Part shown: positions 5,495 through 7,005 of the stretch, in pieces
How the letters are laid out: every line of letters begins with the position of its first letter
Numbering within the stretch: position 1 is the stretch's first letter
Assembly: GCA_003246625.1 (NCBI GenBank)
Contig: QJZR01000014.1
Location: 7,219 to 71,218, forward strand
Reading direction: 5' to 3'
DNA: 64,000 bases
DNA from: Alphaproteobacteria bacterium
Lineage (GTDB): Bacteria > Pseudomonadota > Alphaproteobacteria > Rhodospirillales > Rhodospirillaceae
Made by a program: the position numbers and the translations under genes
The notes under the pieces: generated by a model
What the model was told of the DNA's origin: nothing
The model's database searches: none
The model's input: only the letters and a program-made list of their open reading frames with translations

Positions 5495-5965
5495 TCAGAA
5501 CAGGAAGTGCAGGTGGCGGAGCAGGAATTCCGGCGGCAACAGATAAAGCAGCGCCAGGACGAGCAAGGGCAGGCCGGTGCCGATGGAGCGGCTGAGCCAT
5601 TTGACGTTGCTTTCCTCCGGCGGCACCAGGAACAGGTTGCCGATCGACATTCCGGCGAGCAGCACGGCAAAGCCGGTTTCCCCCAGGCCGAACACCGGCG
5701 GCACTTCCATGCCGGTGACCGGCGCGGTGCGGAAATAGACCATGCGCATCATCAGAATGACCATCAGCGACAGCGAGCAGTACAGGAAGGTCTTGCGGCG
5801 CGAACGGGTGAGGACGACGCGCGGCGCGGTGCGCGCGGTCAGGTATTCCACCTCGTCGTCGTCCAGTTCCTTGTTGATCGGCGAGGTGCCGAACATCGCC
5901 TTCTCGTCCTCGAACGGAAGGTTGGGTTCGGCGGCTCCGGTTCCCTCGGTCTTCTTGTCGCTCAT
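5495..5965 (-). CDS. Hypothetical membrane protein (156 aa, acidic N-terminus, about 3 TM segments)
   Basis: Codon usage like neighbouring genes, GAGA-type RBS, hydrophobic C-terminal segments; family not recognised. Confidence 0.7.
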   Translation of the reverse strand: MSDKKTEGTGAAEPNLPFEDEKAMFGTSPINKELDDDEVEYLTARTAPRVVLTRSRRKTFLYCSLSLMVILMMRMVYFRTAPVTGMEVPPVFGLGETGFAVLLAGMSIGNLFLVPPEESNVKWLSRSIGTGLPLLVLALLYLLPPEFLLRHLHFLF

Positions 5966-6049
5966 CGGCAAGGTCTCCCTCTTCCCGCAGTGGCTCTTCG
6001 CTCGGCATGCCGTATACCCCGTCCGCGCGGCGGCGTCAAAACCGGCGAG

Positions 6050-6079
6050 AAAAATGGCCCGGTGGAAAACCACCGGGCC
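6050..6079 (-). terminator. Intrinsic terminator
   Basis: Minus strand GGCCCGGTGG-TTTT-CCACCGGGCC-ATTTTT, perfect 10-bp stem. Confidence 0.8.
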
Positions 6080-6209
6080 GGAGTCTCGGGAGGAACAAAC
6101 ACTGATACTCAGGAAACCAAACCATCCCCGCACTGCCGGGACGATCCGTCCGAAGGGCGAAGTCGCCTGGACGGGGTTGCCTCACTGAAAGCCTGAGGCC
6201 TCAGCACTC
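6050..6209 (-). ncRNA. Candidate suhB/alpha-r8 (MmgR/GsrN-like) small RNA, ~160 nt
   Basis: TTCCTCCC-GAGACT-CCGGCC directly before the terminator resembles the family core TTCCTCCC-NAGACT-NNGGCC (recalled, not searched); sigma54-type promoter upstream. Confidence 0.65.
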
Positions 6210-6220
6210 GCGGATAACTT

Positions 6221-6237
6221 TGCATCCCTTGTGCCAA
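6221..6237 (-). promoter_or_regulatory. Putative sigma54 (-24/-12) promoter
   Basis: Minus strand TTGGCACAAGGGATGCA versus consensus YTGGCACGRNNNTTGCW, exact GG/GC spacing. Confidence 0.65.
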
Positions 6238-6438
6238 ACGCCGAGAAACGTCAGAACCCCTGACATTTCAACGGGTTCCGCGCGAATGGCGGGAAAATCT
6301 TCATGTCGAATGCGCGGCAATGGAACAAAAGCGCGCCGCGATGGAGGGGTTCTGACCAAAAAATAAGCGCCCGCCGCATTGCCGCTTCCCTGGGCGGCGT
6401 GCGATGATCGGCGCACGGAAAAGATACGGAGACGACGG

Positions 6439-7005
6439 ATGCCCCCCTCCCTGGCGGTGACGGCGCGGCGCTTGGCGCGCTGGCCGCTGGTCCACTGGAT
6501 GGACCGGCGCCTGGGGTTCCCCGATCGCGGCGGGGAGCCCGACATCGGCTTTCTCGCCGACGATTCCCGCCATTTCGAGCTGTTCGCCAGTTGGCTACAC
6601 GCGCAATGGAGCGCGCCGCGCGGCGAATCCCTGGGTCAGCGGCGCCGGATGCTGCGCGCCCAAATGAACCTGGACCGCCTGCCGATCGCGCTGGTCGCCT
6701 ATTGGCAAGGCAGTCCCGCCGGGATCGTCAGCCTGCGTGCCGACGACCTGCACAGCCGTCCGGATCTGACTCCGTGGCTGTCCGCCCTTTACGTCGATCC
6801 CGCCTTGCGCGGACGCGGTATCGGCCGGGCGCTGGTGCGCGCCACCCTCGACCTTGCCGCCTGGATGGGATACCCCCGCGTCTTCCTGTTCACCACCGAC
6901 CGGCAAAGCCTGTACGCGGAACTCGGCTGGAACCTCCTGCCCAGGCTGCCCGGGGAGGCGAAGCTGTCGCCGCCGCCCGACGTCTTTTCCGCGGCAACCC
7001 GGTAA
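6439..7005 (+). CDS. GNAT family N-acetyltransferase
   Basis: PWLSALYVDPALRGRGIGRALV acetyl-CoA motif; GGAGA RBS before ATG 6439 (start could be later). Confidence 0.85.
   Translation: MPPSLAVTARRLARWPLVHWMDRRLGFPDRGGEPDIGFLADDSRHFELFASWLHAQWSAPRGESLGQRRRMLRAQMNLDRLPIALVAYWQGSPAGIVSLRADDLHSRPDLTPWLSALYVDPALRGRGIGRALVRATLDLAAWMGYPRVFLFTTDRQSLYAELGWNLLPRLPGEAKLSPPPDVFSAATR

Follow-up and report, generated by a model that had tools for sequence, protein, structure and literature searches.

For Sinorhizobium meliloti, reviews describe induction of the sRNA gene mmgR under nitrogen limitation and its activation by NtrC (PMC7143759, PMC8401924), and the mmgR promoter is of the sigma-70 type with a PhaR/AniA box (PMC12542648). 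The Sphingopyxis suhB gene uses a LysR activator (bioRxiv 10.64898/2025.12.09.693200). In Caulobacter, GsrN (~100 nt) depends on sigma-T/EcfG and pairs a C-rich stretch, held in the loop of a 5′ hairpin, with G-rich mRNA leaders; its 5′ part is functionally important, and its homologues are defined by the GSR locus (PMC5869019).

The window analysed here, a stretch of 64,000 nt, carries on its minus strand a non-coding sRNA gene of ~160 nt whose order, orientation and neighbours are kept in 11 of 12 genomes of its genus. This genus of Rhodospirillaceae includes Oleispirillum naphthae (the Oleispirillum group) and consists of aquatic and sludge bacteria. The promoter motif, seed and terminator are all retained at the 11 orthologous loci. 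The immediate neighbours are a divergent GNAT acetyltransferase gene (6439..7005, plus strand; Pfam Acetyltransf_1, E = 2.5e-12) and an orphan gene, p156 (5495..5965, minus strand), which encodes a conserved protein of 156 aa with a hydrophobic segment. Both genes are found at 11/11 loci, p156 invariably downstream of the RNA and with 48–68% identity by tblastn; searches of p156 against Pfam and NCBIfam profiles gave no match. Every feature listed by an earlier, sequence-only reading of this DNA is located on the minus strand, and the non-coding unit that it proposed is real and conserved. The middle of the RNA carries indels of 4, 6, 7 and 25 nt, so no ORF is conserved across the 11 orthologous loci; a small ORF was ruled out by frame-breaking indels. 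A covariance model of positions 6050..6210 scores 157–182 bits in the five other same-genus genomes searched whose RNA is full-length and 52 bits in the distant orthologue G004, which has a different 5′ domain. Searches beyond the genus, by BLAST and by the covariance model across 81 genomes from the family, did not recover the extended RNA. Judged by its sequence conservation, the locus thus appears to encode a small RNA as a gene of its own and to be restricted to a single genus of Rhodospirillaceae.

The 3′ end of the RNA is conserved. The core CAGUGUUUGUUCCUCCCGAGACU (6082..6104, minus strand) holds the anti-Shine–Dalgarno seed UUCCUCCC at 6095-6088. Within it, UUCCUCCCGAGACU (6095-6082) consists of TTCCTCCC (6095-6088) followed by GAGACT (6087-6082). 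Across all 11 orthologues, including G004, the core shows at most three changes and CAGUGUUUGUUCCUCCCG is untouched; UUCCUCCCG is likewise unchanged in 11/11, and the AGACU tail varies in three. A terminator scan places an intrinsic terminator immediately downstream, GGCCCGGTGG-TTTT-CCACCGGGCC at 6079-6056 on the minus strand, followed by an A and by TTTTT at 6054-6050. Its stem of 10 bp, nine of them G-C pairs, encloses a UUUU loop; the stem is present in all orthologues, and the loop varies.

The sequence-only reading had assigned this 3′ end to the suhB/alpha-r8 family and held that the absence of a suhB model hit would speak against it. The Rfam model (RF00519) has a gathering score of 41 bits, and at that threshold it has no match in the window; with permissive filters the locus is the genome's best match, at 30.9 bits (E = 1.5e-4), and its orthologues reach 28.5–34.4 bits. 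The model aligns to the seed and terminator helix only below threshold. Two family traits are present: a single-stranded UUUCCUCCCUAGACU directly 5′ of the terminator, here represented by UUCCUCCCGAGACU, and a 3′-terminal hairpin terminator carrying a U tail, here the 10-bp stem followed by UUUUU. Thirteen of the 14 single-stranded positions agree with the suhB consensus UUcCUCCCuAgACU, with identical spacing to the terminator. The first hairpin of the family (model positions 8–20, GCCC-UUCUU-GGGC) is deleted in the alignment, and CAGUGUUUG and a domain of 110 nt stand in its place. The assignment therefore holds for the core positions and the terminator and falters on the score, the deleted hairpin and the lack of common neighbours. 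On sequence grounds, membership of the suhB/alpha-r8 family is plausible.

The same RNA, acting in the same way, could instead be a convergent anti-Shine–Dalgarno sRNA, with a CCUCCC-plus-terminator end and no kinship to suhB/alpha-r8. Besides the score under the gathering threshold and the missing first hairpin, the genomic context points in this direction. None of the 30 canonical or near-canonical suhB-model loci in sister genera has a GNAT, p156 or aminotransferase gene within 1.5 kb, and a sigma-54 motif occurs at none of the 30 top-scoring suhB-like loci and at none of 20 sub-threshold ones. At least 24 sister-genus copies have a different type of promoter, sigma-70 with a PhaR-type box, and the PHB genes tied to MmgR function are absent from the window's genome. 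The region also weakly matches unrelated Burkholderia C-rich sRNA models, and several unrelated sRNA-like families in sister genera score 31–38 bits with the suhB model. Against convergence, the likeness exceeds an anti-Shine–Dalgarno sequence, extending over 13 of 14 positions of UUCCUCCCnAGACU at equal distance from the terminator. The match has E ~2e-4 per genome, whereas among 13 control genomes from outside the Alphaproteobacteria only one has a match even as good as E <= 0.01. Reciprocally, weak matches of the genus model outside the genus land on suhB-model loci, and suhB RNAs are common in the bacterial family to which the genus belongs, where 28 of 61 genomes have a match over the cut-off. 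We give convergence somewhat less than an even chance. Derivation of the 3′ module from suhB/alpha-r8 is most likely, at slightly better than even odds.

Upstream of the RNA lies a sigma-54-type promoter, TTGGCACAAGGGATGCA (TTGGCAC-AAGGG-ATGCA; 6221..6237, minus strand), with GG of the −24 element at 6235-6234 and GC of the −12 element at 6223-6222. Its core motif, TGGCAC-N5-ATGCA (6236-6221, minus strand), fits TGGCAC-N5-TTGCW at 10 of 12 specified positions. A genome-wide scan returned 34 matches against ~50 expected; because a lone match of this kind is not significant, the case for the promoter rests on conservation. All 11 orthologues have TGGCAC-N5-(A/C)(T/C)GCA with variable spacer and flanks, and the GG-N10-GC spacing is exact in each of them, G004 with its differing 5′ domain included. 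The DNA between the motif and the predicted +1 varies. Conservation resumes at +1, where the invariant RNA columns start at C6210, exactly 12 nt past the −12 C. The predicted primary transcript thus runs for ~161 nt on the minus strand (6050..6210), from this putative start through the U run of the terminator. The host genome has one rpoN gene and five activators of the bEBP type (NifA, NtrC, FlbD-like, LuxO-like and NtrX), of which all but NtrX contain GAFTGA. The same type of motif is found upstream of nifH, a nifB-like gene, flgI and flgE/F/G-type genes. Since the motif is conserved, rpoN is encoded and the same type of motif precedes nif and flagellar genes, the sigma-54 control predicted by the sequence-only reading is well supported by comparison.

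Assembled contigs from metatranscriptomes, which carry neither strand nor local depth information and may include DNA, add evidence on the transcript. In relatives, single contigs span both the 5′ domain and the core, which places the two on one molecule; an example of 179 nt at depth 11 covers +15 to +159 plus 33 nt further. The contigs of some runs are compatible with the predicted start, but the 5′ limits conflict between runs. In four biofilm metatranscriptomes, contigs of a close relative extend beyond the predicted start on its upstream side by 24–62 nt or more and cross the promoter, and one wastewater contig extends 8 nt upstream; such crossing implies either DNA carry-over or an additional upstream start. 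These contigs, reaching from 8 to >62 nt upstream, favour a reading in which TGGCAC-N5-TGCA is not a working promoter but a protein-binding site or part of an RNA that starts further upstream from a sigma-70-type promoter. In that relative's clade, a TTGGAC-N18-TTTAGC-like element adjoins a GTCAG-N5-CTGAC dyad at ~90 nt before the predicted start, and base pairing is conceivable between GGCAC of the motif and GUGCU of the 5′ block. Neither the window's clade nor G004, however, conserves the candidate upstream promoter. The conserved positions are those contacted by sigma-54, GG-N10-GC in 11/11, with variable sequence from there until +1, and the contigs lack strand information and can include DNA. 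We consider such an upstream start rather unlikely and retain the sigma-54 promoter.

Beyond the terminator, a sigma-70-type promoter for the downstream gene (6011..6039, minus strand) comprises TTGACG (6039-6034), a 17-nt spacer and TATACG (6016-6011), and ten of the 11 orthologues have TTGAC(A/G)-N17-TATA(C/T/G) or a near variant after the terminator. Because this conserved promoter sits between the terminator and p156, we take the RNA to be a separate transcription unit and reject as very improbable its being a 5′ leader or attenuator of p156 rather than a trans-acting RNA: in 11 genomes the RNA is always followed by p156, and some contigs pass the terminator by 33–35 nt, but the 10-bp terminator is G+C-rich, its arms take part in no conserved alternative pairing of the antiterminator kind, and in four metatranscriptomes no coverage connects the RNA contigs with those of p156.

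Directly upstream of the −24 element is a perfect dyad, GTCAG-GGGTT-CTGAC (6250..6264, minus strand), with a half-copy, GTCAGAACCCC, further upstream (6356-6346, minus strand). A dyad of this type precedes TGGCAC by ~120 nt at seven of the 11 orthologous loci. The window's copy lies at −28, and GTCAG-N5-CTGAC is degenerate at the usual position in the window's own clade. The dyad is nearly unique to the RNA locus in five relatives, and because it is essentially unique there, GTCAG-N5-CTGAC does not define a regulon. Its role may be that of an enhancer, or it may serve the divergent GNAT gene as an operator. An activator-binding enhancer would be expected about 80–150 bp upstream of a sigma-54 promoter; the 11 loci have no recognisable enhancer site in common. 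The NtrC box TGC-N11-GCA is absent from 11/11 loci, a result that comes with no positive control for this box. The NifA box TGT-N10-ACA, which is readily found at nif promoters, was not found at the RNA promoter, and neither a LuxO-type TTGCA-N3-TGCAA box nor a flagellar-type CGGCA-N5-TGCCG dyad is present at the RNA locus. Two genomes, G004 and G009, retain the RNA yet lack NifA. By elimination, we infer that activation comes from either NtrC or the LuxO-like response regulator that the genus conserves, an FlbD-like activator being less likely. The LuxO-like protein scores 644 bits against an NCBIfam LuxO cut-off of 800, and its gene, conserved across the genus, adjoins pst-phoB, away from the RNA. 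A further proposal makes the RNA the sole dedicated target of this regulator, with a Qrr-style phosphorelay acting through sigma-54 on the sRNA, the dyad as enhancer and the 5′ block as a seed switch; we regard this arrangement as improbable.

The RNA is predicted to fold more stably than shuffled sequences (z = −3.1). Near its 5′ end, the palindrome CTGAGGCCTCAG (6203-6192, minus strand) is perfect in the window. The site reads CTGAGGCCACAG in 8 of 10 aligned orthologues, so the palindrome is not a conserved hairpin. It overlaps an invariant 5′ block, GUGCUGAGGCC(N)CAGGCU (6190..6207, minus strand), identical in 10 orthologues bar one position. The block is predicted to pair alternatively with 6113-6104, which forms a helix P1 and leaves the seed open, or with the seed region, which closes it. 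The 3′ strand of this candidate closing helix, CCUGAGUAUC (6104..6113, minus strand), is also invariant. The minimum-energy fold includes P1 in 5 of 10 orthologues; in the other five, the window among them, forming P1 costs 3–7 kcal/mol. The helix carries one one-sided change, G-U to G-C. A seed-sequestering helix predicted by RNAalifold and P1 are mutually exclusive and close in energy. With both strands invariant, these long-range helices offer no covariation.

The middle of the RNA (6121..6189, minus strand) is variable and structured. In the centroid fold, an outer stem pairs CCGUCC (6174-6169) with GGACGG (6151-6146) around an inner hairpin, GGCG-ACTT-CGCC (6167-6156), and is followed by hairpin B at about 6145-6121, all on the minus strand. 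Two changes in the outer stem, seen within the clade of the window, are compensatory (CCGCCC:GGGCGG and CCAUCC:GGAUGG), and hairpin B shows one such change; compensatory changes in two helices indicate selection on RNA structure. The middle region is built differently in the genus's other clade. The palindrome and stems described by the sequence-only reading are thus present, but the palindrome and the inner GGCG/CGCC hairpin are specific to the window and not conserved. Its broader claim of extra 5′ structure is borne out, in that the RNA has a long 5′ domain missing from canonical suhB RNAs. We take this domain of ~110 nt to be a lineage-specific addition; more speculatively, it may tune seed availability or RNA stability.

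The window's genome contains hfq, and searches found no phasin (Phasin_2), PhaC (PhaC_N) or PhaR (PHB_acc_N). Because all three are lacking, the phasin target suggested by the sequence-only reading is impossible in this host. A simple target scan in the window's genome gave energies that do not discriminate against G-rich ribosome sites, and no theme emerged.

We propose that sigma-54 polymerase would bind the conserved −24/−12 element at 6236-6221 and, helped by an enhancer-binding activator, would start at about C6210 and stop at the terminator at about 6050, yielding an RNA of ~160 nt. Its working part would be the invariant single-stranded core CAGUGUUUGUUCCUCCCGAGACU adjoining the terminator. 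By analogy with MmgR, SuhB and other alphaproteobacterial anti-Shine–Dalgarno sRNAs, the core may pair with Shine–Dalgarno regions of target mRNAs, probably with Hfq, and block translation. In the predicted folds, the invariant first 18 nt can either close the 5′ domain, exposing the seed, or pair with the seed and hide it. The gene would have lost the first hairpin of the suhB family, the sigma-70/PhaR-box promoter and the PHB context. We place the probability of this whole explanation, a sigma-54-driven, genus-confined sRNA with an anti-Shine–Dalgarno core and an added 5′ domain, at about 0.6.

If confirmed, the locus would clearly exemplify promoter swapping during the natural evolution of small RNAs, with a seed–terminator module of the MmgR/SuhB type placed behind sigma-54 where sister genera use sigma-70 and a PhaR-type box. 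The host lineage lacks PHB metabolism, and the RNA would have gained a new 5′ domain of 110 nt. It would also add a sigma-54-dependent base-pairing sRNA to the Alphaproteobacteria, in which few are characterised. Because Oleispirillum naphthae Y-M2, which belongs to this genus, has been cultured, the prediction is directly testable.

Sigma-54- or NtrC-linked sRNAs include NrsZ and NfiS. Others are NcS25 of Burkholderia cenocepacia (PMC10117139) and GlnZ of E. coli (bioRxiv 10.1101/2022.04.01.486790). All four would share the logic of the window RNA, a nitrogen- or sigma-54-controlled promoter driving a base-pairing sRNA, but their sequences are unrelated, they belong to other bacterial classes, and nitrogen control of the window RNA is hypothetical. 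The Vibrio Qrr sRNAs, controlled by LuxO and sigma-54, are likewise small trans-acting RNAs with a sigma-54 promoter, which in the window is a predicted one. The window genome encodes a genus-conserved LuxO-like activator, and the near-unique dyad fits an activator with one target; the window RNA nevertheless has no sequence or structural similarity to Qrr, no Rfam match and no TTGCA-N3-TGCAA box. GsrN resembles the window RNA as an alphaproteobacterial sRNA with a C-rich pairing stretch. Its inclusion in the suhB/alpha-r8 family by the sequence-only reading found no link in the papers searched, where GsrN is defined by its 5′ C-rich loop and the GSR locus (PMC5869019) and where we found no paper naming both GsrN and a suhB-family RNA.

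The nearest comparison is with MmgR of S. meliloti and SuhB of Sphingopyxis granuli TFA, likewise alphaproteobacterial intergenic sRNAs. The suhB family and the window RNA share a single-stranded UUCCUCCCnAGACU directly before an intrinsic terminator, and Hfq-assisted translational repression would be expected of both. The window RNA differs in having a sigma-54 motif instead of a sigma-70 promoter with a PhaR/AniA box, a 110-nt 5′ domain in place of the missing first hairpin, other neighbours and a host without PHB genes. The claim that its regulatory wiring is distinct from that of MmgR is overstated, because mmgR is already known to be NtrC-activated (PMC7143759, PMC8401924), though from a sigma-70 promoter (PMC12542648). 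Since sigma-54-driven sRNAs and anti-Shine–Dalgarno sRNAs are both well known, no new class of mechanism is involved; as far as its sequence tells, the RNA appears to be a rewired local variant of a familiar type of regulator.

The window lies on contig C13 of a 2.69-Mb metagenome-assembled genome whose completeness is estimated at 100%, and its best DNA matches are hydrothermal-vent metagenomes. Exact-word and BLAST searches place this genome in a Rhodospirillaceae genus together with the cultured Oleispirillum naphthae Y-M2 and many wastewater and sludge MAGs. The putative sRNA element is flanked upstream by a divergent GNAT acetyltransferase gene (6439-7005, plus strand) and downstream by p156, an orphan 156-aa gene (5965-5495, minus strand), after which comes an aminotransferase gene. 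This order is common to all 11 element-carrying genomes of the genus; the twelfth, G005, is only 74% complete. The p156 protein has an acidic N-terminus and one hydrophobic segment, and no Pfam or NCBIfam match was found for it. Elsewhere in the genome, the 16-mer GGGTCCGGGC(A/G)GCGCC has many copies, intergenic by approximate ORF calls (for example C1:7905, C4:48549, C5:35269 and C19:289032), and looks from its sequence like a REP-like dispersed repeat.

The sigma-54-type motif TTGGCACAAGGGATGCA spans 6237-6221 on the minus strand, and every minus-strand feature listed in the sequence-only reading was found at its assigned position. Because TGGCAC-N5-nTGCw occurs 34 times in this genome against about 50 expected from composition, a single match carries little weight alone and the argument is comparative. 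TGGCAC and (A/C)(T/C)GCA, separated by exactly 5 bases, are present in all 11 orthologues, with the spacer bases, the stretch from motif to predicted start and most upstream DNA variable. The genus member G004 retains TTGGCACAGTCAATGCA even though its RNA has an unrelated 5′ domain, longer by 75 nt. In the orthologue alignment, invariant sequence restarts at C6210, exactly 12 nt past the C of the -12 GC, which is the expected position of a sigma-54 start. The genome carries a single rpoN gene together with five proteins of the enhancer-binding type (NifA, NtrC, a FlbD-like protein, a LuxO-like response regulator and NtrX, in whose sequence we read no GAFTGA motif), and a sigma-54 motif scan of it picks up textbook genes, namely nifH, a nifB-like gene, flgI and flgE/F/G-type rod and hook genes. 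Motif conservation, the spacing to C6210 and the encoded machinery together make a sigma-54 promoter for the element a well-supported inference. Two further sigma-54 promoters of perfect consensus, TGGCACG-N4-TTGCT, lie elsewhere in the genome, beyond the window (C13:178556, plus; C17:12349, minus), each preceded at 61 nt by a NifA-type box, TGTCGCGGAnnCGACA; approximate gene calls give no ORF downstream of either, and they may serve uncalled nif genes or non-coding RNAs.

As to which protein activates this promoter, NtrC is, by rough odds, a tentative first candidate; the generic NtrC box TGC-N11-GCA (PMC10746234), searched for with no positive control in this genome, occurs in none of the 11 upstream regions. 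The LuxO-like response regulator, kept in all 12 genus genomes with no physical linkage to the element locus, comes a close second. Some other activator, or none, is rated somewhat lower. NifA-type boxes (TGTCG-N6-CGACA) are clearly present upstream of nif promoters and absent at the element locus in every genome examined, and G004 and G009 retain the RNA with only four enhancer-binding-type genes each, none of them NifA. The FlbD-like protein is improbable; the CGGCA-N5-TGCCG dyads common to flagellar promoters are absent at the element locus. The ntrC, ntrX and hfq genes form one cluster (C11:11193-19690), and the gene for the LuxO-like activator (C4:260946-262388) comes after a pstSCAB-phoB-like cluster.

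The only conserved upstream candidate site is a GTCAG-N5-CTGAC dyad, seen in 7 of 11 genomes at a distance of about 120 nt; in five relatives it is almost unique to the element locus. In the window's clade the dyad is degenerate at that position, and in the window itself a perfect copy (6264-6250, minus strand) abuts the -24 element; the dyad is possibly a site of the divergent GNAT gene. In the window's genome, and in no other, GTCAGAACCCC (6346-6356, minus), what is left of the distal dyad, is the exact reverse complement of GGGGTTCTGAC (6250-6260, minus), which lies about 95 nt away within the perfect dyad next to the promoter.

Downstream of the promoter motif lie about 160 nt that contain no conserved reading frame. 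Their minus-strand 3′ end comprises the core UUCCUCCC-GAGACU (6095-6082), a G+C-rich 10-bp terminator hairpin identified by terminator scan (6079-6056) and, after it, five consecutive U residues (6054-6050). The RNA folds better than 200 of 200 dinucleotide shuffles (z = -3.1). Alignment of 10 orthologues divides it into four parts: an invariant 18-nt 5′ block, GUGCUGAGGCCnCAGGCU; a variable middle with many indels, whose lengths of 4, 6, 7 and 25 nt leave no room for a conserved ORF; an invariant 3′ block, UUGGUUUCCUGAGUAUCAGUGUUUGUUCCUCCCG; and the terminator. Among the hairpins proposed from the sequence, the CCGTCC/GGACGG stem holds up, with two independent compensatory changes in the window's clade, and the palindrome CTGAGGCCTCAG does not qualify as a conserved hairpin since only the window has it. 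Hairpin B has a single compensatory change. In predicted folds, the 5′ block can pair in two ways, each of which precludes the other. Paired with CCUGAGUAUC as helix P1, it closes the 5′ domain, and the anti-Shine-Dalgarno seed stays more than 90% unpaired; this is the minimum-energy fold in 5 orthologues. Alternatively, GAGG pairs with CCUC and ACAGGC with GUGUUUGU, hiding the seed; this fold is at the minimum or at most 1 kcal/mol above it in the other 5, the window included. Both partners are invariant, so covariation is powerless to choose, and the pair of competing folds is a possibility raised by modeling.

Evidence of transcription was sought in metatranscriptomes holding relatives' orthologues as short isolated contigs, the window's own sample consisting of DNA runs. 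At the G003 locus, L016, one wastewater run yielded a 179-nt contig at depth 11 that covers the RNA from +15 through its 3′ end and continues for 33 nt, which puts the 5′ domain and core on one molecule. Another wastewater contig reaches 8 nt beyond the predicted start on its upstream side, and in four biofilm runs (X27, X40, X41, X42; L016:1543-1753) contigs cover the 5′ domain and cross the promoter, extending 24-62 nt or more past that start. Since these contigs carry no strand or local depth and possibly include DNA, they neither confirm nor refute the predicted start. The biofilm contigs stop near a TTGGAC-N18-TTTAGC-like element adjoining the GTCAG-N5-CTGAC dyad and could reflect a second promoter in G003's clade or DNA carry-over. 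Although p156 lies directly 3′ of the RNA in all 11 genomes, the element is unlikely to be its leader or attenuator, because p156 has its own promoter, TTGAC(A/G)-N17-TATA(C/T/G) or a near variant, between the terminator and the gene in 10 of 11 genomes, and coverage between the RNA and p156 contigs is zero in four metatranscriptomes.

The 3′ module probably derives from the suhB/alpha-r8 family (about 55%). At the gathering threshold the Rfam suhB model has no match in the window; with permissive filters it is the top model (30.9 bits versus a threshold of 41, E = 1.5e-4), in an alignment that takes in UUCCUCCCGAGACU as well as the terminator and has the first hairpin of the model deleted. 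The element is nevertheless the best suhB match in its genome, as is the orthologous locus in G004 and G001. Across the bacterial family, suhB exceeds the cut-off in 28 of 61 genomes and in 0 of 4 from this genus. In the canonical copies there, a TGCAnCGCAGCA dyad comes after a promoter of the CTTTACA-N17-GATAT type, an arrangement shared by Sinorhizobium meliloti mmgR, whose box is bound by PhaR/AniA (PMC12542648, PMC8401924). In other genera, sigma-54 motifs were found at none of 30 top and 20 sub-threshold suhB-like loci, and the window's neighbours at none of those 30, the loci on which synteny was tested. A covariance model of the genus matches strongly within the genus only, and 3 of its 10 weak outside matches fall on loci also called by the suhB model. 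The best-match status and the three loci shared by the two models speak for a relationship, and the other results of this comparison against membership; because three defining family features fail, we do not file the element as a member. Phasin, PhaC and PhaR are absent from this genome, so the PHB role of MmgR and SuhB is inapplicable and the proposed phasin target is excluded; for placing GsrN in the family, we found no support in the literature. Overall, the original observation is confirmed and its interpretation supported in part only.

Further candidate RNA elements occur in other genera. In the sister genus g10 (L064, G079:C111:7000-7125; L066, G091:C64; L084, G020:C6), a suhB-like GUUGCGUUUCCUCCCUAAACUGGCCCGG with terminator begins about 25-40 nt past the stop codon of a gene ending ...GDGKIFVTEVTEVVRIRTGERGPEAL, by eye a GlnB/GlnK-type PII; this is possibly a 3′-UTR-derived, nitrogen-linked copy of the suhB family, and the G079 copy shares GGCCACAGGC with the window's 5′ block. 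A recurrent conserved GAGGUGCGUCCCUGAAACUUGGGGCGG with terminator (L080, L087, L090, L092, L094, L097 and L099, in g5, g6, g7, g11, g40 and g42) scores 31-38 bits with the suhB model, lacks CCUCC, follows a gene end in several genomes and looks like a separate sRNA or 3′-UTR family. AUCCUACGUCUCCnAGACGUGAAGCCUCCCUGUU with terminator, a hairpin then CCUCCC in three genera (L089, L093 and L098, in g41, g43 and g8), could be a further anti-Shine-Dalgarno sRNA family.

The difference in wiring from MmgR was overstated: reviews describe mmgR transcription as switched on when nitrogen is limiting, with NtrC as its activator, and one review table gives a predicted RpoN motif alongside RpoD (PMC7143759, PMC8401924). 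In Sphingopyxis, a LysR-type regulator activates SuhB (bioRxiv 10.64898/2025.12.09.693200). Sigma-54-dependent sRNAs are well known elsewhere (Qrr, NcS25, GlnZ). Where canonical suhB copies have the CTTTACA-N17-GATAT-type promoter and dyad, the window's element has a sigma-54-type motif instead. A direct test is feasible in the cultured O. naphthae strain, and what is new is the combination of a suhB-like seed and terminator with a putative sigma-54 promoter and a new 5′ domain, in a host free of PHB genes and in one genus only.
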